In this document: piece by piece, positions 97 to 61,862 of the stretch | Layout of the letters: each line of letters begins with the position of its first letter | How positions within the stretch are numbered: position 1 is the first letter of the stretch | Source of the DNA: Patescibacteria group bacterium | GTDB lineage: Bacteria > Patescibacteriota > JACPGU01 | Direction: 5' to 3' | NCBI GenBank assembly: GCA_022703645.1 | Contig: JAKLDG010000001.1 | Location: 669,254-733,253, forward strand | DNA length: 64,000 nt | Translations under genes and position numbers: made by a program | The notes under the pieces: generated by a model | Seen by the model: only the letters and a program-made list of their open reading frames with translations | The model's database searches: none | What the model was told of the DNA's origin: nothing

Positions 97-1503
97 TCAT
101 TTATTAACAATTGATTGATAGTCGTCACCAATTATTATTTCAATGTCATAATTTTTATCTTTTTCATTCAATACAATAACTGGCATATCTTTGCCAAAAT
201 AAGCCTTCAAATAATCCATTGTCGCTGGCTTACTTCCATTTGAATAGTCATAAATAAATGATTTTGGATATTTTTTGTCCTCAGTACTATTTGTTTGTGT
301 ATTTGTAGTGGTGTCTGATATGCTTGGGCTACTCACTAAGTTATAACCCAAACCACTAAGCTCTTTAATTACCGCGTTTTCTTTATAAACATTTTTCACT
401 GAACCAGAAACCAATACTTTTGCTTTTTCCTCAGCAAATAATGGGTCTTTAAAATATTGACGAATAAAGCTATGCACTTCTTTTAATGTACTATCCTTAG
501 GAACCAAAACATACATTTCTTCATATTTATCAGCATATAAAACTCCGTCAGCGGAATCATCTAAAACTTTGTTTTGAATTTTACTAGAGCTAATCTGTTT
601 TCCTATTTGCACTAATCCGTTGATTTCTGAAAGCTGTAAATCCGTTTTAATATTATCGGCTAAAACGCTTAAAATCTGAGAAATCTTTGTCGGACTAACA
701 AGATTTTCTCTCTGCTTTACCTTTTCTTTTAATGCAATAATAATTTCTTGCTGTCTCCTAGCTCTATCAAAATCACTTGTAGTTTCACGAGATCTCGCGT
801 ATTTTAAAGCCATCTCCCCATCTAAATGATGCTCGCCTTTCTTTAAATAAAAGGCTTCATAACCGGCTACATATTTATCTGGATAAAGCGGGTCATAAAG
901 ATCCTCCTTGACATTTACATCAACCCCGCCAACAATATCTATAATTTTCTTAAAAGCATCGAAATTTACAAGCACGCAATAATGAATTGGGACCCCAAGA
1001 AAATCACCAACTGTACTTTTTACCAGACTAAAGTCCATTTCCTTATTTATATTTTTTGCCGAACCAGTTGAAGCATAATCAGAATTATTCAAGCTCAATA
1101 CGGCATTAATCTTTGTACCGCCATAATTTTTCACTTTTACATACAGATCGCGCGGAACCGATAACATTGCCGCTTCTTTGTTTTTCGGATCAATACTAAT
1201 TACCTGCATTGTATCAGTAAGGTTTCCACCTGGATGATTATCTCCGCCAATACCCATCAAAAGTACGTTGATTCTTCGATCGCCATATTCCAATTTTGAT
1301 ATAGCCGCATTGTTATTCCATATATCACCATCTCCGGAAAGAAGCGGCGATGCATTTGATGATTTGGAAACAATCATTTTTTTTGTTAAACCATATGCGC
1401 GAAAACCAAAAAATAAAACACAGGCTAATAAAAATATAAATATAAAAAATATTATATATTTTCTACTCTTATTTGGTTTTATATACTCTAAACTTTCTTC
1501 CAT
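97..1503 (-). CDS. LytR-CpsA-Psr (LCP) family cell-envelope phosphotransferase, N-terminal TM anchor
   Basis: Translation has LCP core (INVLLMGIGGDNHPGGNLTDTMQVISIDP...SVPRDLYV) and a LytR_C-like tail; single N-terminal TM segment. Confidence 0.8.
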   Translation of the reverse strand: MEESLEYIKPNKSRKYIIFFIFIFLLACVLFFGFRAYGLTKKMIVSKSSNASPLLSGDGDIWNNNAAISKLEYGDRRINVLLMGIGGDNHPGGNLTDTMQVISIDPKNKEAAMLSVPRDLYVKVKNYGGTKINAVLSLNNSDYASTGSAKNINKEMDFSLVKSTVGDFLGVPIHYCVLVNFDAFKKIIDIVGGVDVNVKEDLYDPLYPDKYVAGYEAFYLKKGEHHLDGEMALKYARSRETTSDFDRARRQQEIIIALKEKVKQRENLVSPTKISQILSVLADNIKTDLQLSEINGLVQIGKQISSSKIQNKVLDDSADGVLYADKYEEMYVLVPKDSTLKEVHSFIRQYFKDPLFAEEKAKVLVSGSVKNVYKENAVIKELSGLGYNLVSSPSISDTTTNTQTNSTEDKKYPKSFIYDYSNGSKPATMDYLKAYFGKDMPVIVLNEKDKNYDIEIIIGDDYQSIVNK

Positions 1504-11267: not shown

Positions 11268-12341
11268 TTATTTTTCTACAATAACTTTTGTCCCAACTTC
11301 AGCCCAATCATATAAAATCTTTGAATTCTCCAAACTCACTCTAATACAACCATGAGAAACAGGAGTACCGAGATGCCCTTCTCCCTCATAAACATGGGCT
11401 CCATTTTTGTAAACCCAATACGGCAAAGAATGAATTCCATGGGAACCCGAAGGAGTAAAAGCCATCCAATTATCCATATATAACTGATATTCAGGGCTGT
11501 ATTGTACCGGGAATTTGTTATAGATTTGGAAATTACCAGTAGGCGTATCCATTCCTGACATCCCCGTAGAGGTAATAAAAACATAACGCGCTACTCCATT
11601 TTCATAAGCATATAATCTTTGCTGTGATAAATTAACTTTTATATATTTTACAGGATTCCCATCAACTGTTATAACCAATTGCTCATTCTTATTCTTTGGA
11701 TCACGAACTGTTATATCCCAAAAAATATTTTTATCATCTAACCACTTAAATCCTTCTACTAATGGTTTAAAAAACTCCCGATAAATACCACTTTTATTTG
11801 GCGCGGTGATTTCAAAAGTAAAGCTTGCTGTCTGACCAGGTTTTACAACGGGTTTATCCATCATTATCCGATTTGCGCCAACCCAGCCCTTTTCACCATC
11901 TTTAAAAAATACGCTTTTCCTGTCATCTTCATGGCTTGTTCCCAAAAAAAACATTCCCTCATCATTTGATATCCAAGAAACATTTCCCGTATTACGCAAA
12001 CTTAATGACAAAGTTGTTTTTTCACCGATATTTAGCGTCGGTGATTTGCTTTTTGAATCGAACTGATAAGAAAATGTCTTTCCTCTTACTTCCTCTTTTG
12101 AAGGCAACAAATTTGAAATTTTTGTTCCTTGGTTTGCTTGCCTTGTACCGTTATCGATGATTTTATTATCTTCCTGAGTAGGTACAGAAACTGGTGCGGT
12201 AGTGTTTGTAGTCAAGTTCTGAAAGAAAAAACCTAAGGCTGCTATTGCTACAACAAAAAGAAATACAGCTGTATTTATTTTTATGGTTATTATTTTTGAA
12301 TTTTTACCAGACTTCTTATTTATTGTTGATCTTTTTACCAC
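11268..12341 (-). CDS. L,D-transpeptidase (YkuD domain) with N-terminal TM and a ~110-aa beta-sandwich-like domain
   Basis: Catalytic motif HGIHSL...GTPVSHGCIRV; N-terminal domain homologous to the two C-terminal repeats of the glycoside hydrolase at 29307-31406. Confidence 0.8.
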   Translation of the reverse strand: MVKRSTINKKSGKNSKIITIKINTAVFLFVVAIAALGFFFQNLTTNTTAPVSVPTQEDNKIIDNGTRQANQGTKISNLLPSKEEVRGKTFSYQFDSKSKSPTLNIGEKTTLSLSLRNTGNVSWISNDEGMFFLGTSHEDDRKSVFFKDGEKGWVGANRIMMDKPVVKPGQTASFTFEITAPNKSGIYREFFKPLVEGFKWLDDKNIFWDITVRDPKNKNEQLVITVDGNPVKYIKVNLSQQRLYAYENGVARYVFITSTGMSGMDTPTGNFQIYNKFPVQYSPEYQLYMDNWMAFTPSGSHGIHSLPYWVYKNGAHVYEGEGHLGTPVSHGCIRVSLENSKILYDWAEVGTKVIVEK

Positions 12342-17114: not shown

Positions 17115-18515
17115 ATGAAAAGATCTGAACTTTTTTTTACAATAATTACTATACCACTTGACCTTTTTGCAGCAGTTTTTGGTTTTGTGGTTGCATACTA
17201 TATCCGTAAACATCTTGACCCATTCAATATTATTTATATTCCACCTCTTAAGGAATACCTTGCATTTCTGTATTATTTCCTACCAATATGGGTTTTAGTT
17301 TTTTCTTTTTTTGGTTTATATAATGTAAAAATCAATAAAAAATTTGGCCCAACTTTTTATCGAATATTATTTGCTACTCCAACTGCTTTAATGCTTTTCG
17401 TTACAATCATATTTTTTACCAAAGAAGCATTTTTCTCGCGTCTCGTTATATTATATTCTTTGGTCTTGATAATTTTGATAACAACATTTTTACGTACTTT
17501 GGTTTTGATAACACGTAGGATTCTTTTTCGTTTTGGTGTAGGGATAAAAAGAGTTTTAATCATTGGAACCAATAAAACATCGAAAGATATAATAGATGAC
17601 ATCGAAAAACATCCTGGTAAGGGATTTAAAATTATTGGTATAGTAAAAACTGATAACAAAATGGAATCGCTTGATTGCAAGGCAACTATTGTAGGTTTTA
17701 TGAAAGAACTTGGCAGTATCGTTACAAAATTAAAACCTGATGAGATAATCCAAACAGAACCCTTTGGGCCACAAGAAAATCTAAACATCATTCATCTTTG
17801 CGAAGATAAAAGAATAACCTTTCGATATGTTCCTTCTCTGTTCGCTCTTTACTCAAAGAATAACGATACAGATACTTTTGGAAAAATACCCGTCTTCGAA
17901 ATCAAAAGAAGCAACCTTGATGGCTGGGGTAGAGTTTTTAAAAGAATGATTGATATTTTTGGTGCATTAGTTGGAATTATACTTTCATTTCCACTTCAGG
18001 TTTTAATTGCTATATTAATAAAAACAACTTCCAAAGGTCCAGTAATTTTTAAACAGGAAAGAGTGGGAAGAGACAAAAATTATAAAGTTTATAAATTTCG
18101 AACCATGTATGCCGATGCTGAAGCGCGTCATGCACAATTTATCAGACAATACGGCAACATGTTTAAATTGAAAGACGACCCTAGAGTAACAAAAATTGGT
18201 AAGTTCCTAAGAAAAACTTCCATGGATGAAATACCTCAATTCTACAACGTCTTAAAGGGTGAGATGAGTTTGGTTGGTCCACGTCCCCCAATGCCCGTAG
18301 AAGTAGCACGATATACAAGAGAAGAAAAGAAAAGAGTCGGCGGGGTAAAGCCAGGGCTTACAGGTCTTTGGCAAGTTTCAGGACGTTCTGATGTAGACTT
18401 TGAACAATGGGTAGAGCTTGATGTTTATTATATCGAAAACTGGTCACTATTCTTAGATATTATAATAATCCTAAAAACTATTTGGGTTGTTCTCTTCCGC
18501 AAAGGAGCATATTAG
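17115..18515 (+). CDS. undecaprenyl-phosphate sugar phosphotransferase (WbaP/EpsL-like initiating transferase)
   Basis: N-terminal TMs; C-terminal bacterial sugar transferase domain (KGPVIFKQERVGRDKN...FRTM...SLVGPRP). Confidence 0.85.
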   Translation: MKRSELFFTIITIPLDLFAAVFGFVVAYYIRKHLDPFNIIYIPPLKEYLAFLYYFLPIWVLVFSFFGLYNVKINKKFGPTFYRILFATPTALMLFVTIIFFTKEAFFSRLVILYSLVLIILITTFLRTLVLITRRILFRFGVGIKRVLIIGTNKTSKDIIDDIEKHPGKGFKIIGIVKTDNKMESLDCKATIVGFMKELGSIVTKLKPDEIIQTEPFGPQENLNIIHLCEDKRITFRYVPSLFALYSKNNDTDTFGKIPVFEIKRSNLDGWGRVFKRMIDIFGALVGIILSFPLQVLIAILIKTTSKGPVIFKQERVGRDKNYKVYKFRTMYADAEARHAQFIRQYGNMFKLKDDPRVTKIGKFLRKTSMDEIPQFYNVLKGEMSLVGPRPPMPVEVARYTREEKKRVGGVKPGLTGLWQVSGRSDVDFEQWVELDVYYIENWSLFLDIIIILKTIWVVLFRKGAY

Positions 18516-18591
18516 ACTTTTTGTAGGGGCGGGTTTTAAACCCACCCCTAATTTATTTGGCAAAAAGGCTATTTTTTGCTATAATTCATAT

Positions 18592-19749
18592 ATGGAACAA
18601 AAGGAGAAAAAACAACCGAAAATTGCAATCGTTTGCGATTGGCTCACGAATTGGGGCGGTGCTGAACGCTGCATAATGGAGTTTCATAAAATATGGCCGG
18701 AAGCACCGATCTATACTTTGATTTTCAATGAGAAAAAAATGTGGGAGTTTAAAGATGTTAAAATTCATACTTCATATTTACAAAAAATGCCTTTGGCAAA
18801 AAGAAAATGGCAATTTTATCTAAATCAAATGCCTCATGCCATAGAACAGTTCGATCTATCAGAATACGATATTGTTTTTTCAAATAGCCATGTTGTTGCG
18901 AAAGGTGCTATTACCAAACCGGCAACATTACATATATGCTACCTTGATTCGCCTACACGTTATCTATGGGATTACATGTATTTATATATAAAAGAAATGC
19001 GGATAACAAAGGTGGGTATTATTGATAGCGTTTTAAAAAAATATATTAAGCGAAGATTTCATGCCATAAGAATTTGGGATTTTAATGCTGGACAACGTCC
19101 TGATAAAATTATCGCTATTTCAAACTACATACGTAATCGAACAAAAAAATACTACCGTCGAGACACAGACGTTATCTATCCCCCAGTGGATGCTGGTCTT
19201 TATCAACCCGTTGATGAAAGCGAAATTGAAGATTACTACCTAGTAGTTGGACGACAAGTTGATTATAAAAAAACAGACATCGTTATTGAAGCATTCAACA
19301 AATTGGATTTGCCACTTGTTATTATTGGCGAAGGATCAGCTTTGAAAAAATTAAAAAAACTGGCGAAAAATAAAAAAATTAAATTTACTGGGAGGATTCC
19401 TGATGCCGATGTAAAAAGATATTATGCCCACTGTCGCGCTTTTATTTTTCCGCAAGAAGAAGATTTTGGAATCACTCCTCTTGAGGCGCAATCGGCCGGC
19501 CGGCCAGTTATCGCATATCGCGCTGGAGGCGCCTGCGAGACAGTAATAGAAAATGAAACGGGAGTTTTCTTTGACGAGCAAACACCGGATGCGATTATTA
19601 AGGCAGTACAAAATTTTGACCACAAAAAATTTGATTCTGTAAAAATCCGCGAACATGCATTAAGGTTTGACACTGAAATTTTTAAGAAAAATATCAAAGA
19701 ATATGTTGAGAAAGCCTGGGAAGAACACTTAGAAAAAATTAAATATTAA
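18592..19749 (+). CDS. glycosyltransferase family 4 (GT-B)
   Basis: ORF track starts 18487 but the first residues overlap a hairpin/intergenic stretch; M at 18592 (MEQKEKKQPKIAIV) is the likely start; C-terminal GT4 E-x7-E-like region (PQEEDFGITPLEAQSAGRPVIA). Confidence 0.75.
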   Translation: MEQKEKKQPKIAIVCDWLTNWGGAERCIMEFHKIWPEAPIYTLIFNEKKMWEFKDVKIHTSYLQKMPLAKRKWQFYLNQMPHAIEQFDLSEYDIVFSNSHVVAKGAITKPATLHICYLDSPTRYLWDYMYLYIKEMRITKVGIIDSVLKKYIKRRFHAIRIWDFNAGQRPDKIIAISNYIRNRTKKYYRRDTDVIYPPVDAGLYQPVDESEIEDYYLVVGRQVDYKKTDIVIEAFNKLDLPLVIIGEGSALKKLKKLAKNKKIKFTGRIPDADVKRYYAHCRAFIFPQEEDFGITPLEAQSAGRPVIAYRAGGACETVIENETGVFFDEQTPDAIIKAVQNFDHKKFDSVKIREHALRFDTEIFKKNIKEYVEKAWEEHLEKIKY

Positions 19750-19785
19750 AAATAATTAAAGTAATATAGAAAGGGATTTAATTTT

Positions 19786-21057
19786 ATGGAACTAAAAGAT
19801 ATAATGCAAATTATCAAAAAGAGAATTATTTTGATGATAATTATCGTAGTGATTTTTATTGTTGGCGCGTATTTATTGACAAAAAAATCTAAAGCAAATT
19901 TTGAAACTTCATCTGTTCTAACGGTACAAGCAATGAAAGAAAGCTCTGATCAATATCAATACGGTGGATATTATTCTATTCAAGCTTCAGATTTATTTAT
20001 CAATACTATACTTGGTTGGATCAAAAGTTCAAATATAGTTGCCGAAATATATCAAAAAACCGGCATTAGCTATGATATTAATGAGACAAACAAACTTGGA
20101 GGAAATATTTATGCGCGCAAGGTTCCACCACAAAACATTGAATTAATTATTAGTGATCACAATGAGGAGGTATCGAAAAAATTAACTGATGGTGTTATTG
20201 CAATGATTAAAGATAAAACCAACCAGCTTGGAATGGTTACAAACTCAGCAGCGAATTTTGAAATTGTAAGCTCACAGCCAATCACTACACCGATAAAACA
20301 AAACTTACCACTGAACCTAATGATTGCTTTCATACTTTCTTTAGTACTGGGAATTACATGTGTATTTATTGTTGAATATTTGAGTCCAAAAATTAATAAC
20401 GGACAAAGAGTACGCGCTATATTTGGCAAAGACTTTATTTCAATGCGCTCCCTAAAAACAAAAGGACTGATCAACCCCGACACAAAGGCCGCAGAAAAGT
20501 TTCGTTTTTTACGTGCTAATATGTTAATTGATGACACAAAAGGCAAACTATCTGCGATAATTGCCGGTATCAACGAACAGAAAATAACACCTCTTTTGTC
20601 TGCAAACTTAGCGCTTTCATTTGCTCGTTCTGGTAAGTTGACAATATTGGTTGACACTAATTTTGACAATCCATCAATCCATGAATATTTCGATAAACAA
20701 AATCAATATGGTTTTTCGGAGTTTCTTTTTGATGAAGGTAATATAGATAAATATCTTCAAAAAACTGATGAGGCAAATCTACGTATAATGTCATCGGGAA
20801 TTAAACTTTCTTATGCTTCCGATACTATTGAACGAGCAAATATAAAAAAGGTTTTAAGTGAATTAGAAAAAGAGGCAGATGTGGTTTTAATTAGTGTTCC
20901 TTCACTTAATGTATCTTCTGAAGCATTCCCATTATTTTCAATAATAAAAAATTCGATTCTTGTCGTTAAATATGGGAAAACAACGATAACAGCTGCATCA
21001 TATATAAATGATTTTCTTGACAAGAAGGATGTTGAGAAAACTATCATTGTAGTATAG
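19786..21057 (+). CDS. Wzz/Wzc-like polysaccharide co-polymerase with degenerate C-terminal P-loop ATPase-like domain
   Basis: N-terminal TM and Wzz-like periplasmic region, second TM, then CpsD/CapB-like region lacking an intact Walker A. Confidence 0.5.
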   Translation: MELKDIMQIIKKRIILMIIIVVIFIVGAYLLTKKSKANFETSSVLTVQAMKESSDQYQYGGYYSIQASDLFINTILGWIKSSNIVAEIYQKTGISYDINETNKLGGNIYARKVPPQNIELIISDHNEEVSKKLTDGVIAMIKDKTNQLGMVTNSAANFEIVSSQPITTPIKQNLPLNLMIAFILSLVLGITCVFIVEYLSPKINNGQRVRAIFGKDFISMRSLKTKGLINPDTKAAEKFRFLRANMLIDDTKGKLSAIIAGINEQKITPLLSANLALSFARSGKLTILVDTNFDNPSIHEYFDKQNQYGFSEFLFDEGNIDKYLQKTDEANLRIMSSGIKLSYASDTIERANIKKVLSELEKEADVVLISVPSLNVSSEAFPLFSIIKNSILVVKYGKTTITAASYINDFLDKKDVEKTIIVV

Positions 21058-21083
21058 TTTTCAAGTATATCAGAATTACAAAT

Positions 21084-22220
21084 ATGAATAAAAATGGAAC
21101 ACTTCGCATCGGTATCGACGGAAGAGTACTACAAGATGCACAAAGATCCGGAATACCATCCTATGCTTATCACATAGTTCATGAAATCATAAATAACGAT
21201 TCATTAAACCACTATGTAATTTTTTTTAATTCTTTTAGAAGAATTGATTATACCATTCTAAAATTTAATCAAAAAAACGTTGAAATAAAGATTTACCATT
21301 TTCCAAATAAAATTTTGGAATGGGTCTGGAAGATTTTCCCCTTCCCAAAAATTGATCGTATATTAAACTTAGACGTTTTCTTTTCACCTCACTTTCTGAA
21401 TATACCGCTTTCAAAAAAAGTAAAAAAGATCGTAACCATTCATGACTTATCATTTGAGAAAAATAAGAAATATTTTTCTTTGAAAAAAAATCTTTGGCAT
21501 TGGCAAATGAACCCTCGGCGTGTTTGTAAATATTATGATAAGATAATTGCCGTATCAGAATCAACAAAAAATGATTTAGAGAATATTTACGGAATTAAAA
21601 AAGAAAAAATAAAAGTCATATACAATGGTGCATCATTCGAAAAAGAAATAAATGAACATTTAACCAACGAAGTATTTTTAAAATATGGTGTTCAAAAGGA
21701 TAAATATATATTGTTTATTTCTACTCTGGAACCAAGAAAAAACATTGAAGGTATCATTGACGCATATAGCTTAATCCAAAAAAATTCCGATATGAAATTG
21801 GTAATTGCCGGGAAAAAAGGTTGGGCCTACAAAAAAATATTTAAAAAAATAAATAAGAATGACTTATACTCAAAAATATCATTTACCGGTTTTATAAATG
21901 ACAAAGAAAAACAAATTTTATATAGCAATGCAAAATGTTTTATTTATCCGTCATTTTATGAGGGGTTTGGAATACCTGTGCTGGAGGCAAAGCACCATTT
22001 TCTTCCTACTGTTACTTCATTTACATCATCTTTACCTGAGATTGTTAAGAATTCAGCTATTTTAGTTAATCCTCATAGTATTTATGATATTGCTCAGTCG
22101 ATACAATTCATTAAATCAAATTTGCAACTTAGTTTTATTTTAAAAAAGAAAATGGCATTGATTGCAAAAAATGAATGGGATCATTCTGGCAAAGAGACAT
22201 TAAATTATATTCTGAATTAA
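21084..22220 (+). CDS. glycosyltransferase family 4
   Basis: FISTLEPRKNIEGII...YPSFYEGFGIPVLEA. Confidence 0.8.
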   Translation: MNKNGTLRIGIDGRVLQDAQRSGIPSYAYHIVHEIINNDSLNHYVIFFNSFRRIDYTILKFNQKNVEIKIYHFPNKILEWVWKIFPFPKIDRILNLDVFFSPHFLNIPLSKKVKKIVTIHDLSFEKNKKYFSLKKNLWHWQMNPRRVCKYYDKIIAVSESTKNDLENIYGIKKEKIKVIYNGASFEKEINEHLTNEVFLKYGVQKDKYILFISTLEPRKNIEGIIDAYSLIQKNSDMKLVIAGKKGWAYKKIFKKINKNDLYSKISFTGFINDKEKQILYSNAKCFIYPSFYEGFGIPVLEAKHHFLPTVTSFTSSLPEIVKNSAILVNPHSIYDIAQSIQFIKSNLQLSFILKKKMALIAKNEWDHSGKETLNYILN

Positions 22221-22271
22221 TTATAAAAATCGTCTACAACTTTTATTACAAACAGAGTATAATTTCTAATA

Positions 22272-24374
22272 ATGCTAAAGGAAAGTGAAAACAACAATTT
22301 TTATTTAAACAATAACCATGATATAAAAAATAAAATAATTGATGGAATTTTTTTGAATACGCCGAAAAAAATTTATACGCCTGACTATAATATCGATCTT
22401 AAAGAATTAACTAATAGTAAGCCTGATATACTTTCAAAAAAATTCTATGATATTGATAAGTTAGAAGATATCGATGGTATAGCAAAAACAAAAAACTACA
22501 GTAAAGCAGCAAAAATCATTATTAGCCTTATAATGATTTTCCTTTTTTCGATTGTACCGATAAAAATTATAAATACTACATCCAACCTCAAAGCACAGAC
22601 TCAGAGAACTATTAATGATTTAGAAATGGTATATCCGCTTATTCAAAGTGGTGATTACGATCAAACAAAAGAAAGGTTATTGATTATTCAGAAAAACATT
22701 GAAGTAATTAAAAAAAGCCTATCTGATCTTGGACAAGATAATTTATTTCTTGATGAATTTTCGCAATTTCAAGATGACACTGCAAACAACTCAAACTTAC
22801 TAGATATTGTTTACTCAATGTCGAAAATCGGAAACGTACTAATAACAGACCTGGAGTTTTCAAAGAATTTAAATTTTTCTGATATCAATACTAGTTCAAC
22901 TAACAGTGATGTATTCGCAAGAATGAAAAAATTAAATTCTGATTTAGAAAAGCTTGAACCCGAAATTTTATCAATTAAGAATAAGGTCAATAATCTCGAT
23001 GAATCAAAATTTGATCTAAATAATCAAAAATACATTCTAACTCTCAAGGAAAACGCGGACAAGATATTAAATTATTATAACTCCGGATTGATTGCTAGCA
23101 AAAATGCTAACTCCCTTCTCGGTGAGGATTATGATAGAAAATATCTTATACTTTTTCAAAATAATACGGAACTACGCCCAACTGGTGGGTTTATCGGAAC
23201 TTACGGAATTATTACAGTTCGGGATGCTAAGATAAAAAAAATATATATTGATAGCATTTACAATGCTGATGGGCAACAAACAAAAAATTTCACGCCTCCT
23301 GAACCTTTATCAAAAATGGATCCGGGACATTACATGCGGAACGCAAACTGGGATCCTGATTTTCTAACTTCTGCTAGCGATATTATAAATATGTACGAAA
23401 CTGAGGGCGGCTTTACACCTGACGGCGTTATTGCAATAGATACTAAACCTTTTTTGGACTTACTTGCAATAACAGGACCGATTAAAATATCTAAATATAA
23501 TACATTGATAGATAAAGATAATTTTCTAGCAGTTACTCAATACAAAACTAGCATTGACTACAACCCTCAAGATGGTAATCCGAAAAAATTTTTGGGAGAA
23601 TTTGCTCCCCTTTTCTTAGATAAGATTTTTTCAATCGAAAAAAATAACAAGGGCAAGATTACAAAAATATTATTAGATAATATCAAAGAAAAGCATATTC
23701 AGTTTTATTCCCCAAATACAGATATACAAAGTATTTTTTCTAGTATAGACATTGATGGAGCAATAAAAAATTCTGACAGCGACTATTTTGCCTATATTAA
23801 TGCAAACATCGGTGGCCAAAAAACGAATGGACTAATCGAGGAAGTAATAAATCATCAGGTAAATATCAGTAATGATGGAAAAATAACTCATAAGGTAACA
23901 TTAACCAGAAAACATAATGGCACTTATGACTGGCCAAGCGGAATAAATTATAGCTATGTGCGCTTCTATCTTCCTCAAGGTTCGAAGGTTATTGATATAA
24001 AAAACTTCGAAAAAAATGATTCTATTAAACGGGATGGTAAAACGGGCATGATCTATCTGGAAGAAAGGTCAAGCGAATATCTCGGTAAGGCAGAAATTAA
24101 GGATTTAGACATTTCTATTGAACACGGAAAAACAGTGGTTGGTGCTTGGCAAAGAATAAAACCCGGAGAAGAAGTGGTTTCAGAGATTTTTTATGAATTA
24201 CCAAGGTTGCCAGGAATGAAAAAACCGTCCCAAGATTATTCTATTCTTATCCAAAAACAGGCCGGGATAATAAAACAGCAAACCTCAATAGAAATAAAAG
24301 ATAATGGGAAAACGATATTCTCTAAAAACTTTAATCTTATAAAAGACACCACGATCAATTTGAACTCAAAATAA
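22272..24374 (+). CDS. large membrane-anchored extracytoplasmic protein, possibly DUF4012 family
   Basis: Single TM near residue 80; conserved block YLILFQNNTELRPTGGFIGTYGII recalled as DUF4012-like; located in a polysaccharide locus. Confidence 0.4.
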   Translation: MLKESENNNFYLNNNHDIKNKIIDGIFLNTPKKIYTPDYNIDLKELTNSKPDILSKKFYDIDKLEDIDGIAKTKNYSKAAKIIISLIMIFLFSIVPIKIINTTSNLKAQTQRTINDLEMVYPLIQSGDYDQTKERLLIIQKNIEVIKKSLSDLGQDNLFLDEFSQFQDDTANNSNLLDIVYSMSKIGNVLITDLEFSKNLNFSDINTSSTNSDVFARMKKLNSDLEKLEPEILSIKNKVNNLDESKFDLNNQKYILTLKENADKILNYYNSGLIASKNANSLLGEDYDRKYLILFQNNTELRPTGGFIGTYGIITVRDAKIKKIYIDSIYNADGQQTKNFTPPEPLSKMDPGHYMRNANWDPDFLTSASDIINMYETEGGFTPDGVIAIDTKPFLDLLAITGPIKISKYNTLIDKDNFLAVTQYKTSIDYNPQDGNPKKFLGEFAPLFLDKIFSIEKNNKGKITKILLDNIKEKHIQFYSPNTDIQSIFSSIDIDGAIKNSDSDYFAYINANIGGQKTNGLIEEVINHQVNISNDGKITHKVTLTRKHNGTYDWPSGINYSYVRFYLPQGSKVIDIKNFEKNDSIKRDGKTGMIYLEERSSEYLGKAEIKDLDISIEHGKTVVGAWQRIKPGEEVVSEIFYELPRLPGMKKPSQDYSILIQKQAGIIKQQTSIEIKDNGKTIFSKNFNLIKDTTINLNSK

Positions 24375-29306: not shown

Positions 29307-31406
29307 TCAAGAATCTACTCTAATTTTCCAATATATTCCTATATCTCTCATCCAACCGACTCCTTCAACGACCGGCCTAAAATATTCCTTAAATACGCCA
29401 TTTTTATCATTTGCGGATAAATTTACCGTAAATGTACCAATCTCCCCAGGTTTAACTAAACTCTGATCAAGCAATATTCGGTTCGGATAACCCCAATTAT
29501 TAGAAAGTTCGCTCACTCGGTCTTTATTTCTCGAGGTCCCGAGATTAAAACTACCTTTTTCCCAATTTCTTGAACCAGTATTTTTAAGTTTTAAGACAAG
29601 TTGTGTTTTTTCTCCATTTTTTAAAACAGGATTTGTAGATTGGCCAATATAGGTATAGCTATATCCAAATTGATCGCCTGTTTTATCTTCTTGATCTATA
29701 TTACTAACCTCTATATCCCAATATACTCCTTTATCCTCCATCCAAGCAAACCCTTCAATTAATGGACAAAAATATTCTCGATAAGTGCCATCCATTAACC
29801 CATTGCTCTTTACCCTAAAACGAAATGTTGCTGTTTCGCCATTTTTTACAGTTAGTTCCTCCATTCTCGCAGGCCTACTAATTGCAAGCCAATTGCCATC
29901 AACAAAAAAACCAGATCCTCTATCTATATTTCTACATGTACCCAAAACTACCTGATCATTATTCCATACCATATCACCAGTATTTTTAATTTTCAACCAT
30001 ACTTGCCTTTCCTCTTCGCTTTTCAGGCTAATATGCGGTGACTGGGCTATGTATTCATAGGAATTTTTTTGGCTAAAACTAATACTACTTTCAATGCTCG
30101 TCTTATTACCGCTAATAATAAAAATAGGAAAATCGCTTATGGTTAGATTCTTCACTCCATGATCATTTTGAATATTCAACTCTTTACCAATATAGTCAAA
30201 TATTTTAATGTTATTATTTGGATCGTCTATTACCATCTGGCTGTTGCCATTAATTTTCCAAACAGCTCTTATATTCTCCTCATTTTTTGAAAAAGAATAA
30301 TCGAATATACCACCTTCACCGTTCCTATTAATTTTTCCAAACTGGCTATACTGAAGAATTTTTACTAGATTTTGAAAAGCATAAAAAGATTTTTTTGGAG
30401 AATAATCTCTTTTTATAATACCAAAATTGTGCTCCCGATAGTTTTTATCATTCCCATCATCTCTCAAATCATACCAAAATATTTTTTTGATATCTGGAAA
30501 TGCAAAGCTCATTAAATAAGTACGCACTAGATAACTTGCTTGAATGTCTTCGCTCACACCCTCAGTAGAATCTGTCGGCCAGCCAAGTTCAGTAAACCAG
30601 ATAGGTTTATTGTTAAATTCTTCCGCGATTTTCTCTGCTTTTATAATATCTTGAATCAACCCGCTTTCAGGAGGAGATTTGAAATCGAGTCTATATGGAT
30701 GAACAGCTAAGATATCGATATAATTATACCCACCCAAATCTCTTAGCGCTTTTAGATACCCGACATCAACGCCTGATGTACCGCCCAAGACCACATTTGC
30801 GCTTGAATCTTTTGACTTTATCACCTCATAAGCATTTTTGAGTAAAGAATAATAATCAGAAACACCTTGATCCGTTTTTAAAAAAATTGAAATATTTTCT
30901 TCATTCCATATCTGCCAATATTTAATTTTTCCTCCATAACGGTCAACTATTTTGCCAACATAATTTCTCCAGTCATCTATATTGGACATGTATTTGTCCG
31001 CATCTGCCCTTTTTGGGTCAGAAGTTGCCCAAGGAGCGCTATAATCTAGAATCGCTAAAACATTGATATTTGATTCTGATATTTTACTATATGCTCTATC
31101 ATAAAAGGCCCAGTCGTAAACTCCTTTACTCGGTTCTATTTGAGACCAAACAAATTCTTCCCGAGCCCAGCCAACATTGAGATTTTTTAAAGATTGTATT
31201 GGCTTATCCCATTCTTCCCAGTTATAACGATTTAATATGAAAGCGTTTACTGCAAAACGCGAATCTGGTTCTTGCATAGCCGCGCTGGATGGATTCAGTA
31301 ATAAAAAAGTAGCCATCGATAAAGACCCAATAGAAAACAAACACAGAACTAAAACTAATTTTTTTAGTCTTTTCGAACTATTTTTCATATCTCCATCCCA
31401 ATCCAA
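29307..31406 (-). CDS. secreted clan GH-A (GH5-like TIM-barrel) glycoside hydrolase with two C-terminal ~110-aa beta-sandwich repeats
   Basis: Signal/TM N-terminus; acid/base-like WQIWNEEN and nucleophile-like IWFTELGW motifs; two C-terminal repeats homologous to each other and to the L,D-transpeptidase N-domain. Confidence 0.6.
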   Translation of the reverse strand: MDWDGDMKNSSKRLKKLVLVLCLFSIGSLSMATFLLLNPSSAAMQEPDSRFAVNAFILNRYNWEEWDKPIQSLKNLNVGWAREEFVWSQIEPSKGVYDWAFYDRAYSKISESNINVLAILDYSAPWATSDPKRADADKYMSNIDDWRNYVGKIVDRYGGKIKYWQIWNEENISIFLKTDQGVSDYYSLLKNAYEVIKSKDSSANVVLGGTSGVDVGYLKALRDLGGYNYIDILAVHPYRLDFKSPPESGLIQDIIKAEKIAEEFNNKPIWFTELGWPTDSTEGVSEDIQASYLVRTYLMSFAFPDIKKIFWYDLRDDGNDKNYREHNFGIIKRDYSPKKSFYAFQNLVKILQYSQFGKINRNGEGGIFDYSFSKNEENIRAVWKINGNSQMVIDDPNNNIKIFDYIGKELNIQNDHGVKNLTISDFPIFIISGNKTSIESSISFSQKNSYEYIAQSPHISLKSEEERQVWLKIKNTGDMVWNNDQVVLGTCRNIDRGSGFFVDGNWLAISRPARMEELTVKNGETATFRFRVKSNGLMDGTYREYFCPLIEGFAWMEDKGVYWDIEVSNIDQEDKTGDQFGYSYTYIGQSTNPVLKNGEKTQLVLKLKNTGSRNWEKGSFNLGTSRNKDRVSELSNNWGYPNRILLDQSLVKPGEIGTFTVNLSANDKNGVFKEYFRPVVEGVGWMRDIGIYWKIRVDS

Positions 31407-33593: not shown

Positions 33594-34715
33594 TTAGTAA
33601 CTATAAATATCTACTGTTCTGCCGGCCGAATCTTTTAGTGTTGCAGGCTCTCCAACTCTATTCCAAACACTATCTGTTGTATTAAATGAAAAACCACCTT
33701 TCCCTGTGTTTACTCGGACAGTAGCTCCAGCGTTTAGAATAAAGGAAGGAAATATAAAACCATGTCCATCCGAATCAGAAACAGACCATCCAGTTAGGTC
33801 TTTACTCTCATCTCCAGTATTTCGGATTTCAATGAATTCATCACCTCCGTCATTTCCAACATCGGCAGCATATTTTAGATAGCTAATTATAACTTTTGAT
33901 GGATAAATTGTTATTGGCTGTGAAGGTTCTTCTGAACTCTGACCACCATTTGATGGCAAATTATCTGATGAATTATTATCCCCGCTTGAAGCACCATTTT
34001 GAGTAGAATTATTATTGGTACTACTTGATAAATTATCAGAATTACTCGAGCTTGGACTATTTCTTGCACTACTGCTACCATTTGCATCCTCATCATATTT
34101 AATTTCAATCTCTTTCTCTGTTTGTTTCATACCATTATCCGCAACTACTTTTATCGTATTGTCTTCCTCTGTTAATGAGACAGTCGTTTCAAAAAATCCT
34201 TCTTTAACAGGAACTTCTTTATCATTAACAAAAATTTTTGTCCCGCCATCATCTGTTTTACCCTTGACTAAGATCTCATTTTTATTTACTGTCTCACCAC
34301 TACTTGGTGAAATTATATCAAGATTTGGAGCAGGAGACACATATGAAATAACTTCTCTATATATAACACTACCAGCCGAATTGGTAACCTCCACAGTATT
34401 TTTCCCATCATTTAGAGCAATAGTAAAAGAAAACCTTCCCGATCCGTCGCTGGTAATATCTTTTATTTTTATCTTATTTACAAAAACAGAAAGATTCTCA
34501 CTATCTTTCGCGCCAGTACCAACGATATCAACTGTTGAAGTAGTAGCTGTTCTTTCTTTTGCAATAAGGCCCCCGCTTCGTCCACCTATCATAGGTGCGA
34601 TAACCGCCGAAGCAAACAAAATTATTAATAAAAATAAAATTAATAATAATATCTTTTTCCATTTCCCACTTTTCTTTTTTTCAAAAATCGTGTCGAGGTT
34701 TCTATCTTCTACCAT
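33594..34715 (-). CDS. membrane-anchored surface protein: Ig-like domains, S/N-rich linker, C-terminal lamin-tail domain (LTD)
   Basis: N-terminal TM; low-complexity SSSNSDNLSSSTNNNS linker; LTD-like EFIEIRNTGDESKDLTGWSV. Confidence 0.55.
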   Translation of the reverse strand: MVEDRNLDTIFEKKKSGKWKKILLLILFLLIILFASAVIAPMIGGRSGGLIAKERTATTSTVDIVGTGAKDSENLSVFVNKIKIKDITSDGSGRFSFTIALNDGKNTVEVTNSAGSVIYREVISYVSPAPNLDIISPSSGETVNKNEILVKGKTDDGGTKIFVNDKEVPVKEGFFETTVSLTEEDNTIKVVADNGMKQTEKEIEIKYDEDANGSSSARNSPSSSNSDNLSSSTNNNSTQNGASSGDNNSSDNLPSNGGQSSEEPSQPITIYPSKVIISYLKYAADVGNDGGDEFIEIRNTGDESKDLTGWSVSDSDGHGFIFPSFILNAGATVRVNTGKGGFSFNTTDSVWNRVGEPATLKDSAGRTVDIYSY

Positions 34716-39280: not shown

Positions 39281-40786
39281 ATGAAATATTTTATCTACGC
39301 AAGAAAATCAACAGACGAACCGGAAAGACAAGTTCTTTCTATTGAAGCTCAAATCACAGAGTTGAAAGAACTTGCGGAGCGAGAGCATATTGAAATTGTA
39401 AATACATTTATAGAATCCCAAACGGCCAAAGAACCCGGCAGACCTATTTTCAATAATATGCTCTCGCGAATGGAAAAAGGAGAAGCTCAGGGAATTTTAG
39501 CGTGGCATCCTGATCGTCTTGCTCGCAACTCTGTAGATGGTGGCAGAGTTATCTATCTCATTGATACAGGACATATCACAGCGCTAAAATTTCCGACTTT
39601 CTGGTTCGATCCCACACCGCAAGGAAAGTTTATGTTATCAATCGCTTTTGGGCAATCAAAGTATTACATTGATAATCTTTCGGAGAATGTCAAAAGAGGC
39701 CTAAGACAAAAAGTAAGACACGGAGAACAAGTCGGAGTAGCTCCCACAGGCTATCTCAATGACAAGCTAAATCACAAAATAATTCCCGACCCAGCAAAAA
39801 TTATTTTAATTCAAAAACTTTTTGAAATGTACTCCACAGGAAACCATTCTCTGAAATCTCTCCGAAAGATTATCAATGATCTTGGCTTGACTTCTCGCAA
39901 TAATAAACCGCTTTCAGTTTCCAATGTTCAGTTTATTTTAAGTTCACCTTTTTACTACGGAGCATTTATGTTCAAGGGTGAACTACATCAAGGAAAGCAT
40001 GAGCCAGCAATTTCAAAGAAACTTTTTGATAGATGCCAAGAGATTATGCAAACCAAATCACACAAAGTTACGAAAAGCGTGATAGAATATCCATTTCGCA
40101 AATTGCTTCAATGTGGCGAGTGCGGATGTTCTATAACCAGTGAAATACAAAAAGGTCACAATTATTATCATTGCACCAAGAAGCGCGAAAAGTGTTTTCA
40201 ACCCTACATCCGCGAAGAATCTCTCGCCACAAACATTTGCGAAACACTTCAAAAAGTTTCTTTGAATCCAGATTGGGCTGACGACATGATTCAAACATTA
40301 AATAACGAAAAACAGGACACCGCCCAATCTGATGCCCTTTTTGCTCAAAAGATGAAAAACGAAATCGCAGGACACGACGAGAAACTTCAAGATCTACTTG
40401 ACCTCATGTTGGAGAAAGTAATTTCTAAAGACGAATACACTGCTAAAAAGCAAACCGTGCTCAACCAAAAAATAGACATTCAAGAAAAATTGAAGGTTTT
40501 TGAGCAAAAGGGCAATTGCTGGCTCGAACGTGCGAGAACTTATATTTTAGACGCTAAACAAGCCAAGATTATATCTTTGAATAAGAATTTTTCAGAAATG
40601 AAAAATTTCTTAAAAAAGATCGGCTCGAACCCGCTCCTGCGGGATAGAGAAATTACCATTTCTCTCAAAAATGAGTGGAAAATACTGGAAAAATTTAATT
40701 CGGAATTTCAGAAATTCGGCCAAAAAATCCCTCGGAATTTAATTTTTCAGCGGAAACTGGGAGGCCTGGATTCGAACCAGGGTTAA
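39281..40786 (+). CDS. large serine recombinase (resolvase N-domain + recombinase domain + zinc ribbon)
   Basis: MKYFIYARKSTDEPERQVLSIEAQ... catalytic Ser region; CGECGC...HYYHC zinc ribbon; last ~35 codons lie inside repeat R' and tRNA-Gln(CUG). Confidence 0.85.
   Translation: MKYFIYARKSTDEPERQVLSIEAQITELKELAEREHIEIVNTFIESQTAKEPGRPIFNNMLSRMEKGEAQGILAWHPDRLARNSVDGGRVIYLIDTGHITALKFPTFWFDPTPQGKFMLSIAFGQSKYYIDNLSENVKRGLRQKVRHGEQVGVAPTGYLNDKLNHKIIPDPAKIILIQKLFEMYSTGNHSLKSLRKIINDLGLTSRNNKPLSVSNVQFILSSPFYYGAFMFKGELHQGKHEPAISKKLFDRCQEIMQTKSHKVTKSVIEYPFRKLLQCGECGCSITSEIQKGHNYYHCTKKREKCFQPYIREESLATNICETLQKVSLNPDWADDMIQTLNNEKQDTAQSDALFAQKMKNEIAGHDEKLQDLLDLMLEKVISKDEYTAKKQTVLNQKIDIQEKLKVFEQKGNCWLERARTYILDAKQAKIISLNKNFSEMKNFLKKIGSNPLLRDREITISLKNEWKILEKFNSEFQKFGQKIPRNLIFQRKLGGLDSNQG
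40675..40760. repeat. repeat R', inverted partner of R, abutting and including the 3' CCAG of tRNA-Gln(CUG)
   Basis: Exact reverse complement of 39141-39226. Confidence 0.85.
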
Positions 40787-40827
40787 CGGCTTCAGAGGCC
40801 GCTGTCCTACCACTAGACGATCTCCCA
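40757..40827 (-). tRNA. tRNA-Gln (anticodon CUG)
   Basis: Reverse complement: UGGGAGA-UC-GUCU..GGAC-A-GCGGC-CUCUGAA-GCCGU-UAAC-CCUGG-UUCGAAU-CCAGG-CCUCCCA-G; paralogous to the tRNA at 15074; A7:C66 mismatch in acceptor stem. Confidence 0.75.
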
Positions 40828-57987: not shown

Positions 57988-59421
57988 CTAGGGGTTTACT
58001 AGAGTTGTGTCAGGAGAATTATTTGAGTTTGGGCTCTCCGGTGGTGTTACCTCCGGTGTTTTTGGTTCTTCTTTTCCTACTAGAAACTTTGCTCTCCAAG
58101 GAATATAGTGTGAATCAAACCGATCATCTTTTACAGTTCCGTCGGAATATGTAATTTTGCGAGTGAAGTAAGCATCGGCACCAGTATGTGCTGTGTCTGT
58201 TTGTTTTTTCTCACCTGGTTTTAACTCCGTCGTTTCAATCATGATTGGATCACCCGGAGGAACTAAATTATAAACAGTTGATTTACTAACCTCAACTTTG
58301 CGCCCATCGTTAGTTCCATAAAAATCAACAAATAAATCATTACCAGAAATTCTTGTTTGAATTAAAATATAGTTTTTTGTATCGTTAGTAAAAACTAAAT
58401 CCGGCTTTGGCTGATAGATGGTTGAATCAAATCCAGCTGGTTCATAATAAACTACACGGTAAGCGTGAGCGCTTCTCTCAACGATTGGAAAACCGGCATT
58501 TATTGCAGCGCGGAAAAAAGTTGTACTAACCTGGCAAAGACCACCACCATATTCAGGGATAGTTTTATCTTCTTTAATAACTAGCTCTGGCAGATATCCA
58601 GTTTTAGCGCTCACTTCGCCAAGATAAGTAATGAAAGAAAAATTTTCACCTGGCTTAATTAATATGCCGTTAAATACTTGCGCACCAACGTCAATATTAT
58701 GAATTCTGTTTGGAGGAGAATATGCAAAACTGCTCTGACCAGTAGCTACCAATTCTTTAATACCCATTTTATTCATGTCATCTACATTTTGCGCTTTAAC
58801 CTCCTGGATATTTAATTTAACCGTACCCTTTTGAGTAATAACAGCATTTTTTATTTCTTCAACATTTTCGTCGATCAAAAGTTTTTTTCCGTTTGAACCA
58901 ATAACAAAATCTGCAACTTTATTATTTTTTATTTCAAATTTTCCATCAACAGATTCTTTATCTATTGATGTGGCTAATTCTTTTAAATATTGACTGAGCA
59001 CATCGGAATCAAATTCATATGCCATTTCAATATCTCTCTTAAGTACAAAAGAACTTGCCCAGACCTCAAGATTTGTTAAATAGTTTCCCTCTCTCCCAAC
59101 ATACAAAATATCTCTCGCTGTCTTACTGTCATTCCAAGAAAAACCAATATCGCTGATTTTTACATTAATGCTTTTATCCTCGTATCCCAAGATGATCTGA
59201 TTTTGTAACTCTGCTTTTTTTGCGCTAACTGTTTTATATACCTCTTCTCCGGTCTTCCCTGTCATCTTTGTGCCATAAAAAAATACATTCGGAATAACAC
59301 GGTCTTTAAATCCCATTCTAAAATAAATTAGAGAAAAAAGAGATAATAATATGCAAACCAAAACAACAACCAATACAGCCTTCGATAAAAACTTTATCAA
59401 ATTTTTTATTTTTTTTAACAT
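57988..59421 (-). CDS. VanW-family protein with N-terminal TM and G5/PG-binding-like region
   Basis: VanW domain block ...GGGLCQVSTTFFRAAINAGFPIVERSAHAYRVVYYEP... Confidence 0.7.
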   Translation of the reverse strand: MLKKIKNLIKFLSKAVLVVVLVCILLSLFSLIYFRMGFKDRVIPNVFFYGTKMTGKTGEEVYKTVSAKKAELQNQIILGYEDKSINVKISDIGFSWNDSKTARDILYVGREGNYLTNLEVWASSFVLKRDIEMAYEFDSDVLSQYLKELATSIDKESVDGKFEIKNNKVADFVIGSNGKKLLIDENVEEIKNAVITQKGTVKLNIQEVKAQNVDDMNKMGIKELVATGQSSFAYSPPNRIHNIDVGAQVFNGILIKPGENFSFITYLGEVSAKTGYLPELVIKEDKTIPEYGGGLCQVSTTFFRAAINAGFPIVERSAHAYRVVYYEPAGFDSTIYQPKPDLVFTNDTKNYILIQTRISGNDLFVDFYGTNDGRKVEVSKSTVYNLVPPGDPIMIETTELKPGEKKQTDTAHTGADAYFTRKITYSDGTVKDDRFDSHYIPWRAKFLVGKEEPKTPEVTPPESPNSNNSPDTTLVNP

Positions 59422-59424
59422 GAA

Positions 59425-60594
59425 TTATTTTTTATTCTTTTCTAATATCTTTAAATAAATATCTCGTGTCTCTTCAGCCATTTTATCCCAAGAAAACTTT
59501 TTAATATGGTTCAGCCCTAATTCGATAAATTCTTTGCGCATCTTATGATCTTCTAAAATCATCTTCATTTTTTCTGCAATGCTTTCCGGTAAATATGGAT
59601 TAAAATATATTGCTGCATTTTCACAAACCTCCGGAAGACAAGAAGTTGCCGAAGTCAAAATCGGTACTCCCGAAGCCATTGCCTCTAGCGGTGGAATTCC
59701 AAATCCTTCTGCGAAAGATGGGAATGTACATGCATAGGAGTTTGCCAATAGTGCCTGAAGCTCATCATCTGTAACAATACCCGTAAAAATAATCCTCCCG
59801 TCTCCGATATTATCTTTTCTAACCCAATCTTCAAGTGCCGCATAAAATTTTTCTCGCTTTCCAGCCAAAACCAACTTAATATCTTTTTTTTCTTTACTCA
59901 AAATATCAAAACCCTGAATCAATCGTTTAAGATTTTTATGTGGAGAAGCATTCCCAACGTAAACAAAATATCCTTGTCTTTTCAGACTGAATTTTTCTGA
60001 CAATATTTTGAATACCTCAGCCTTCTCAGCGACGGAGAAGCTTTTATCGACTGACTCGTAAGTAACTTCTACTTTATCATTCTTGATTTTATAAGCTATT
60101 GATATATCTTTTTTGGAATTATACGAAGGAACAATTACTCTCGTCGCTTTTTTTATCACATCTTTTATCACCCTCTCATATACAAATTGTTTAACTTCAT
60201 AAATAAAAGGTGGAAGCTTTGAGATTTTTATTCCCTCCTTCGCAGTAATCGAATAGGTAAGATCGTGAATTGTAACGACATATGGTCTACGGTAAAAAAT
60301 AGATTTGTTAAAGTGGGTAAAGTGCATTAAATCGGGTTTTACACTTTTCCAAATTCTTGGCATCTTAAGTTGTTCGCGAAACCCATACCAGCCAACGTTC
60401 GCAAGTACTTTATGAAAATTTGGGTGTTTTGGCTTATATAGATCATAGCCTTCTTTGTATAAGAAAACGTAGTATTCATTCTCTCGATCAACATTTTCAA
60501 GACCAGTGATTAATTCTCTACTATAACGCCCAATGCCTCCAGGTATCTGATAAAGACGCGCATCTATGCCGATAATATATTTGCTATTCTCCAT
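59425..60594 (-). CDS. glycosyltransferase family 4
   Basis: ...FPSFAEGFGIPPLEAMASGVP... Confidence 0.8.
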   Translation of the reverse strand: MENSKYIIGIDARLYQIPGGIGRYSRELITGLENVDRENEYYVFLYKEGYDLYKPKHPNFHKVLANVGWYGFREQLKMPRIWKSVKPDLMHFTHFNKSIFYRRPYVVTIHDLTYSITAKEGIKISKLPPFIYEVKQFVYERVIKDVIKKATRVIVPSYNSKKDISIAYKIKNDKVEVTYESVDKSFSVAEKAEVFKILSEKFSLKRQGYFVYVGNASPHKNLKRLIQGFDILSKEKKDIKLVLAGKREKFYAALEDWVRKDNIGDGRIIFTGIVTDDELQALLANSYACTFPSFAEGFGIPPLEAMASGVPILTSATSCLPEVCENAAIYFNPYLPESIAEKMKMILEDHKMRKEFIELGLNHIKKFSWDKMAEETRDIYLKILEKNKK

Positions 60595-61846: not shown

Positions 61847-61862
61847 TTGATATTGCTGTCGC

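Follow-up and report, generated by a model that had tools for sequence, protein, structure and literature searches.

What joins an L,D-transpeptidase (Ldt) to a glycosidase encoded in the same 64,000-nucleotide stretch of a Patescibacteria genome (contig JAKLDG010000001.1; the whole of this stretch is called the window below), and what does the domain that the two proteins share do for them? A sequence-only reading of the window had proposed that the domain in front of the catalytic part of the Ldt is homologous to two tandem C-terminal domains of the glycosidase, and that it is plausibly a beta-sandwich module binding the cell wall or a glycan, which targets both enzymes to one and the same envelope polymer. 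Our analysis identifies the shared module as a divergent bacterial member of the FW/NBR1-like family of immunoglobulin (Ig)-fold domains, PF16158. We consider that it would act as a general module for retention or positioning in the envelope, by binding a wall component common to its carriers, and give this reading a probability of about 0.5. The two genes and the three copies of the domain are as follows.

11268–12341, minus strand: FW-YkuD L,D-transpeptidase, an open reading frame of 357 residues comprising an anchor, a linker, an FW domain and a YkuD domain (open reading frame and Pfam).
11688–12083, minus strand: FW/NBR1-type Ig-like domain of the Ldt, residues 87–218 (PF16158, AlphaFold2, Foldseek).
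29307–31406, minus strand: exported GH39/PslG-like glycosidase with two C-terminal FW domains, an open reading frame of 699 residues (open reading frame, Pfam, alignment to PDB entries).
29691–30086, minus strand: FW copy 1 of the glycosidase, residues 441–572 (BLASTP to the Ldt copy and to copy 2).
29310–29672, minus strand: FW copy 2 of the glycosidase, residues 579–699 (BLASTP to the Ldt copy; match to PF16158 below the cut-off).

With compositional matrix adjustment, BLASTP aligned residues 87–218 of the Ldt with residues 582–697 of the glycosidase (41% identity, E = 1e-30) and the Ldt FW domain with glycosidase residues 449–567 (40% identity, E = 6e-25). The two glycosidase copies are 42% identical to each other (E = 9e-28), and 33 positions are invariant across all three copies. 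The only point in favour of a chance or compositional similarity, with no shared domain behind it, is the AT-rich sequence of the window (34% GC) and its Lys/Asn-rich coding. Such an explanation is refuted by the adjusted E values of 1e-30 to 6e-25, by the 3,761 related clusters described below and by the agreement between Pfam, hhalign and the fold search; its probability is negligible, and the similarity of the copies lies far beyond chance or composition, low complexity being excluded. The homology claimed by the sequence-only reading is thereby borne out at these composition-adjusted E values, and its open reading frames and quoted peptide strings are present in the translations. The length that it gave for the module, approximately 110 residues, has to be raised to approximately 120–130. 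Its description of the Ldt copy as an N-terminal domain holds insofar as the copy precedes YkuD, but a membrane anchor and a linker of approximately 45 residues come before it. A six-frame hmmsearch of the window with the three-copy profile revealed no fourth copy, the next best match scoring 3.7 bits. A recent duplication or shuffling within the genome was also considered and rejected, since the paralogous copies are approximately 40% identical to each other and 52–53% identical to their own orthologues.

Several independent comparisons place this module in PF16158 (N_BRCA1_IG), the ‘Ig-like domain from next to BRCA1 gene’ of Pfam, for which FW domain and NBR1 domain are other names. Taken alone, the Ldt copy scores 32.3 bits for PF16158, where the gathering score is 28 (E = 1.5e-7); within the whole protein it scores 29.7 bits. 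Glycosidase copy 2 remains under the cut-off (23.6 bits, E = 7.8e-5) and copy 1 alone has no Pfam match; both, however, align with the Ldt copy at E values of approximately 1e-25 to 1e-30. Among the 129 family representatives scanned, 121 match PF16158, with a best E value of 7.8e-71. When 413 instances of the family were compared by hhalign with the FW domains of human NBR1, human ILRUN and Chaetomium Nbr1 (CtNbr1), whose sequences were verified against their PDB entries, the probability was 95.8% and the E value 7e-9 over 81 columns. From 51 domain sequences, AlphaFold2 gave an all-beta model with a predicted local distance difference test score (pLDDT) of 95.1 and a predicted template modelling score (pTM) of 0.87, in agreement with the beta-sandwich fold suggested earlier. 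When this model was submitted to Foldseek, the human NBR1 FW domain (chains of 4OLE) occupied ranks 1–3, with TM scores of 0.70/0.76 and 2.8 Å as the root-mean-square deviation, followed by the FW domain of ILRUN (6VHI) at rank 4 and the Nbr1 FW domain of 7VQO at rank 6. After the FW domains came generic Ig/Fn3-like domains, among them the Fn3-like ones from GH3 enzymes as well as CARDB and PapD-like domains. A direct sequence search of the PDB with profiles of 3 and 51 copies was too weak, matching NBR1 (4OLE) at just E = 0.54 with antibody light chains scoring similarly, and the identification therefore needed Pfam, hhalign and the fold search. Taken together, profile comparison and structure prediction support the similarity and lead to a domain that is already catalogued.

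The remaining features of the Ldt are its anchor and its catalytic domain.

12222–12278, minus strand: signal anchor, residues ~22–40, INTAVFLFVVAIAALGFFF (read from the sequence; best 15-mer Kyte–Doolittle mean 2.9).
11277–11648, minus strand: YkuD catalytic domain, residues 232–355, with His304 and SHGC332IR (PF03734, E = 1.8e-22).

PF03734 is matched by the Ldt with 80.9 bits against a cut-off of 23.4, and His304 and Cys332, the latter in the SHGCIR motif, align with solved Ldts. The linker between the membrane anchor and the FW domain is polar. This exact protein is present in a public protein collection, where it already carries the tags PF03734 and PF16158 (P0001). The layout of anchor, FW and YkuD is common to approximately 24 Ldt orthologues; YkuD paralogues bear PG_binding_4, SH3_3, Big_5, FG-GAP or TPR domains in place of FW. 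Big_5 itself was not matched by the window Ldt in the Pfam scan.

In the glycosidase the FW pair follows a signal-like segment, a catalytic barrel and a beta-rich region.

31296–31358, minus strand: signal-peptide-like hydrophobic segment, residues 17–37 (read from the sequence; Kyte–Doolittle mean 2.4).
30387–31259, minus strand: clan GH-A (beta/alpha)8 domain, with acid/base E169 (WNEEN) and nucleophile E273 (FTELGW) (alignment to 5jvk and PslG).
30087–30386, minus strand: beta-rich region that separates the FW repeats from the barrel, residues 341–440 (within the 5jvk alignment).

The closest PDB entry to the glycosidase is 5jvk (E = 5.7e-30), followed by PslG (E = 3.2e-16). Both catalytic motifs align, WNE169EN and FTE273LGW pairing with WNEPN and STEWGW of PslG. 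Pfam matches are to GH42, GH39 and Glyco_hydro_cc, and the Pfam scan returned no match to GH5. The protein is thus predicted to be a GH39/PslG-like enzyme with a clan GH-A barrel; the label ‘GH5-like’ proposed previously is right only at the level of the clan. The open reading frame is listed from a TTG at 31406. The likelier start is an ATG six codons downstream, at 31388, which is immediately followed by the signal-like segment with its basic and hydrophobic residues. The N-terminal hydrophobic segments of the two carriers agree with the envelope location that had been proposed for both enzymes. Both FW copies are kept in eight orthologues of the glycosidase. The FW pair is absent from several close ones (P0234, P0232), and FW is therefore an optional cassette.

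The two carriers belong to a much larger set of proteins. An exhaustive HMMER search of 1.84 billion cluster representatives retrieved 3,761 proteins at E ≤ 1e-3, of which 1,945 remain at 1e-10 and 475 at 1e-30 (the count refers to clusters at 50% identity). Almost all of the top 150 proteins contain 2–14 tandem copies of the domain. An N-terminal hydrophobic segment is found in 82–89% of the representatives that look complete, that is, start with Met, and the exceptions look like fragments. The partner domains identified in the 129 representatives are most often Peptidase_S8 (15), DUF4832 (15), Amidase_2 (14) and SpoIID (12), with CHAP (at least 3), GSDH (3) and Peptidase_M23 (2) less frequent; GH39, GH42, Glyco_hydro_cc and GH6, as well as dehydrogenases and phosphatases, are also among the partners. 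In addition, some proteins have hardly anything besides two FW domains and a signal peptide or anchor (P0193, P0153), which shows that the module can be present at the cell surface without a partner domain.

A scan of species-representative genomes, biased by its seeding with two motifs of the three-copy alignment, recovered 72 loci, about half of them in Patescibacteria (Saccharibacteria, Kazan, Peregrinibacteria, Peribacteria) and about half in Chloroflexota, mostly Limnocylindria (L025-L072), with few strays. The strays, single FW loci in metagenome-assembled genomes of Bacillota, Udaeobacter and Terracidiphilus, may reflect binning contamination or gene transfer. The named homologues of both window proteins belong to the ‘Patescibacteria group’, which places the window itself in a genome of that group. 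Among orthologues of the two window proteins, identity reaches 73% in YkuD, 61% in the glycosidase barrel and 52–53% in FW, against 38% in the beta-rich region of the glycosidase and 17% in the linkers. FW is a beta-sandwich cassette, itself non-catalytic, that is shuffled between proteins; Patescibacteria and Chloroflexota attach it, mostly in tandem, to many different exported enzymes, above all those acting on peptidoglycan.

Which residues this cassette conserves was scored on 318 non-redundant instances of the subfamily, with the CtNbr1 numbering confirmed via the 7VQO sequence. The name-giving tryptophans of FW domains are four, situated in beta2, in the beta2–beta3 linker, in beta5 and in beta6, and the subfamily keeps two of them. 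The linker tryptophan, W37, is kept in 99% of the subfamily. That of beta6, W122 (equivalent to CtNbr1 W763), is present in all three window copies and in 47% of the 318 instances. The beta2 tryptophan (CtNbr1 W672) is replaced by Leu, Val or Ile, according to the ungapped register from the NTG motif, and the third one, in beta5, by Phe in 86% of the subfamily. The window module would thus be a member of a divergent subfamily and not a canonical four-tryptophan FW domain. The near-invariant set of the subfamily comprises N31-T-G33, W37, L47-G-T49, D54-R55-x-S57-x-F59, W67, N71-R72, P82-G83, F88, F90, G99, Y101, E103, F105, W114 and D117. The features that set the subfamily apart from NBR1 are W67, W114 and an insertion, the L-G-T-x4-D-R-x-S-x-F loop. 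The same positions (N31, W37, D54-R55-x-S57, W67, N71-R72, E103, W114 and D117) are conserved whatever the catalytic partner. E103 falls on the core-facing register of beta5, at the position of the third eukaryotic tryptophan.

In CtNbr1 and human NBR1, the FW domain accommodates a peptide with N-terminal Gly-Gly; the pocket that binds it is described as conserved among FW domains and is formed in CtNbr1 by F651, D654, D658, W672 and W763 (PMC9233695). In the subfamily, the aromatic residue equivalent to F651 is kept (Tyr, 67%). At the positions of D654 and D658 the residues vary and are not acidic, and the beta1 region found no alignment in the hhalign profile comparison with eukaryotic FW domains. 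This pattern of residues indicates that the N-terminal-glycine pocket is not conserved and that the eukaryotic mechanism is not transferable to the subfamily.

We propose instead that FW would keep exported enzymes at the wall, outside the cytoplasmic membrane, in a role comparable to that of the LysM, SH3b, SLH or CWB2 repeats in Gram-positive autolysins. The ligand might be peptidoglycan or a wall-linked secondary polymer common to the carriers; FW would neither recognise the own substrate of each enzyme nor use the N-terminal-glycine pocket of eukaryotes. Envelope retention is favoured because FW occurs as repeat arrays on diverse secreted enzymes with peptidoglycan hydrolases enriched among the partners, because it fills the slot taken by a peptidoglycan-binding domain in YkuD paralogues, and because the same positions are conserved across partners and FW proteins free of any payload exist. 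The identity of FW among orthologues, higher than that of the linkers and of the beta-rich region of the glycosidase, and the richness of the window in genes for wall polymers (LCP, Bac_transf, GT4, Wzy_C) also speak for it. The partner census and the domain-slot argument make envelope targeting plausible. Several observations weigh on the other side. The matches found by Foldseek include no characterised carbohydrate-binding module (CBM) or peptidoglycan-binding domain, and LysM, SH3b, SLH, PG_binding_1/4 and CWB2 are missing both from the Pfam matches of the two proteins and from the fold matches. The Ldt is already anchored in the membrane, so that it does not need retention, and according to a review peptidoglycan-binding domains generally do not raise Ldt activity (PMC12729407). 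No FW-bearing phage lysin was found in GenBank phages or IMG/VR, and BFVD gave only generic Ig-like matches, a weakly negative result given how scarce candidate phyla radiation (CPR) phages are. Finally, the role of the conserved polar residues may be a structural one, since R55, R72 and E103 could be joined by buried salt bridges into a network that staples the long beta3–beta4 loop.

A buried staple of this kind would suit a serious rival to envelope retention, in which FW is a passive Ig-like spacer or pedestal that only determines how far from the membrane or wall the catalytic domain stands and which way it faces, with FW arrays forming stalks. This is possible, though on the whole we doubt it. 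For the Ldt it fits equally well as envelope targeting, the FW domain being placed between the anchor and the catalytic domain. The two-domain model of FW and YkuD retrieved mycobacterial Ldts first, with both domains in order (E = 2e-8, 280–360 columns); the global TM score to these enzymes is, however, just 0.33, and confidence in the modelled YkuD half is low (pLDDT 42–70; pTM of the model 0.67). In all mycobacterial Ldts the YkuD domain is preceded by BIg domains, the role of which is described as ‘structural’ in a review (PMC12729407), and the generic domains that come next after FW in the fold search (Fn3-like ones from GH3 enzymes, CARDB, PapD-like) are consistent with such a role. A spacer would nevertheless not be expected to be conserved so far above the linkers, and approximately 20 near-invariant positions across hundreds of paralogues are more than is usual for one. 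C-terminal arrays on secreted enzymes have nothing to space, and the proteins consisting of a signal and two FW domains have no payload.

Two further explanations assign FW a ligand of another kind. Recognition of a peptide or free N-terminus by a beta1–beta6 pocket, be it of a glycine-ended peptidoglycan bridge, the amine of a stem peptide, or a partner or S-layer protein, would be in line with the established homology to FW, with the binding of N-terminal Gly-Gly by eukaryotic NBR1 (PMC9233695) and with the fact that the acceptor of an Ldt is a free amine. It is unlikely in view of the non-acidic and variable equivalents of D654 and D658, the aliphatic replacement of W672, the retention of W763 in less than half of the instances and the unaligned beta1 region; the idea of the glycine pocket as such, including its link to the acceptor amines of the Ldt, was rejected in view of residue conservation. 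Very improbable, in our opinion, is a substrate-specific CBM of the glycosidase that was borrowed by the Ldt. Tandem C-terminal beta-sandwiches do occupy the usual place of CBMs, a polysaccharide-biosynthesis cluster is present at 17115–24374, and the Pfam scans gave weak matches of the module to NPCBM_assoc/NEW3. The same module with the same conserved positions is, however, found on proteases, amidases, SpoIID and CHAP proteins, dehydrogenases and phosphatases, close orthologues of the glycosidase manage without it, and neither Pfam nor the fold search matched a CBM family. Envelope retention could also be carried further, into the tentative proposal that extracytoplasmic FW is an unrecognised non-covalent wall anchor of Patescibacteria and Chloroflexota, binding peptidoglycan or a wall-linked secondary polymer through the subfamily-specific D-R-x-S / W / N-R loop and doing the job of LysM, SLH or CWB2. 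The FW domain with which the eukaryotic autophagy receptor NBR1 binds its cargo would in that case be the descendant of a bacterial module for wall binding.

The genes around the two carriers deserve a brief description. An operon link between the Ldt and glycosidase genes was discarded: they are 17 kb apart, among housekeeping genes, and their neighbours include gyrB, a Kef-type antiporter, dnaX and a small gene resembling nicotinamide mononucleotide (NMN) adenylyltransferase. The polysaccharide-biosynthesis cluster (plus strand) lies between them and encodes a Bac_transf priming transferase, two GT4 enzymes, an AAA_31 kinase-like protein and a 700-residue DUF4012 protein. What this cluster produces may be what the PslG-like glycosidase acts on. 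A LytR-CpsA-Psr (LCP) ligase is encoded at 97–1503 (minus strand), and the region 57988–63173 (minus strand) contains a VanW + PG_binding_4 protein (57988–59421), a GT4 enzyme and two O-antigen-ligase-like Wzy_C proteins. The VanW + PG_binding_4, LCP and Wzy_C genes imply that the genome also uses a classical peptidoglycan-binding domain, and a secondary polymer is probably attached to the wall in the source genome. Another protein with Ig-like modules, of 373 residues with Glucodextran_B and lamin-tail domains, is encoded at 33594–34715 (minus strand). Farther on, in the region 39281–40827, lies a gene for a large serine recombinase (501 residues; Resolvase, Recombinase and Zn ribbon). Its 3' end overlaps a tRNA-Gln(ctg) gene at 40757–40827 on the opposite strand, and small unassigned open reading frames are found upstream, at approximately 37.6–39.2 kb; the region may be a small integrated element.

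The domain itself, its occurrence in bacteria and its automatic annotation are all already known. Bacterial FW domains in very diverse architectures, often near the C-terminus, were reported in 2012 by Marchbank et al., who assigned no function to them; their set consisted of XRE-FW regulators, tandem-FW and transmembrane FW proteins from gamma-proteobacteria, Chloroflexi and Actinobacteria (PMC3357945). Later reviews repeat the bacterial occurrence (PMC9582228; PMC9233695). The searchable literature yielded nothing relevant that connects NBR1 or PF16158 with Patescibacteria or with transpeptidases, and neither FW fusions to YkuD, GH39, amidase, SpoIID, CHAP and S8 domains nor an expansion in Patescibacteria were found in it. 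It thus appears that neither these particular fusions nor how large the extracellular subfamily is have been described there. The present analysis supplies correct annotations for the two genes, as an FW-YkuD L,D-transpeptidase and a GH39/PslG-like glycosidase with two FW domains, and indicates that FW/NBR1 has a very large bacterial branch outside the cell, with approximately 3,760 clusters. Were these domains wall anchors, they would explain how CPR bacteria and Chloroflexota hold secreted wall enzymes at the surface, serve as a marker from which the surface proteomes of uncultured lineages could be predicted, and give a bacterial functional context to a domain known mainly from eukaryotic selective autophagy.

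The closest known relatives of the module are the FW domains of solved structure, those of human NBR1 (4OLE), human ILRUN (6VHI) and Chaetomium Nbr1 bound to Ams1 (7VQO). They match the window subfamily in fold and topology, in the K-N-T-G-x-x-x-W motif and in the P-G-E...F-x-F and G-x-Y strands. The eukaryotic domains are cytosolic, whereas the window subfamily is extracytoplasmic and often tandem; the bacterial regulators of the XRE-FW type discussed in the literature of Marchbank et al. are likewise cytoplasmic, unlike the exported FW of the window. On the side of the enzymes, PslG, the GH39 exopolysaccharide endoglycosidase of Pseudomonas, has the clan GH-A barrel and the NE acid/base and TE nucleophile motifs in common with the window glycosidase, some homologues of which are named PslG by the Joint Genome Institute (JGI); PslG is nevertheless without FW domains and similar to it at just E ~3e-16. 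Mycobacterial Ldts (LdtMt1, LdtMt2 and others) consist of a membrane or lipid anchor, an Ig-like BIg domain and then YkuD, in the same order as the window Ldt, but no sequence relation between BIg and FW was found and FW is also carried by many enzymes other than Ldts. In architecture, the counterparts of FW are the LysM, SH3b, SLH, CWB2 and PG_binding_1/4 repeats by which Gram-positive surface enzymes bind the cell wall non-covalently, which are likewise repeated accessory modules on exported amidases, CHAP and M23 proteins. FW occupies the slot of PG_binding_4 or SH3_3 in paralogous Ldts; the folds and sequences of these modules are unrelated to FW, and the likeness is one of architecture only.

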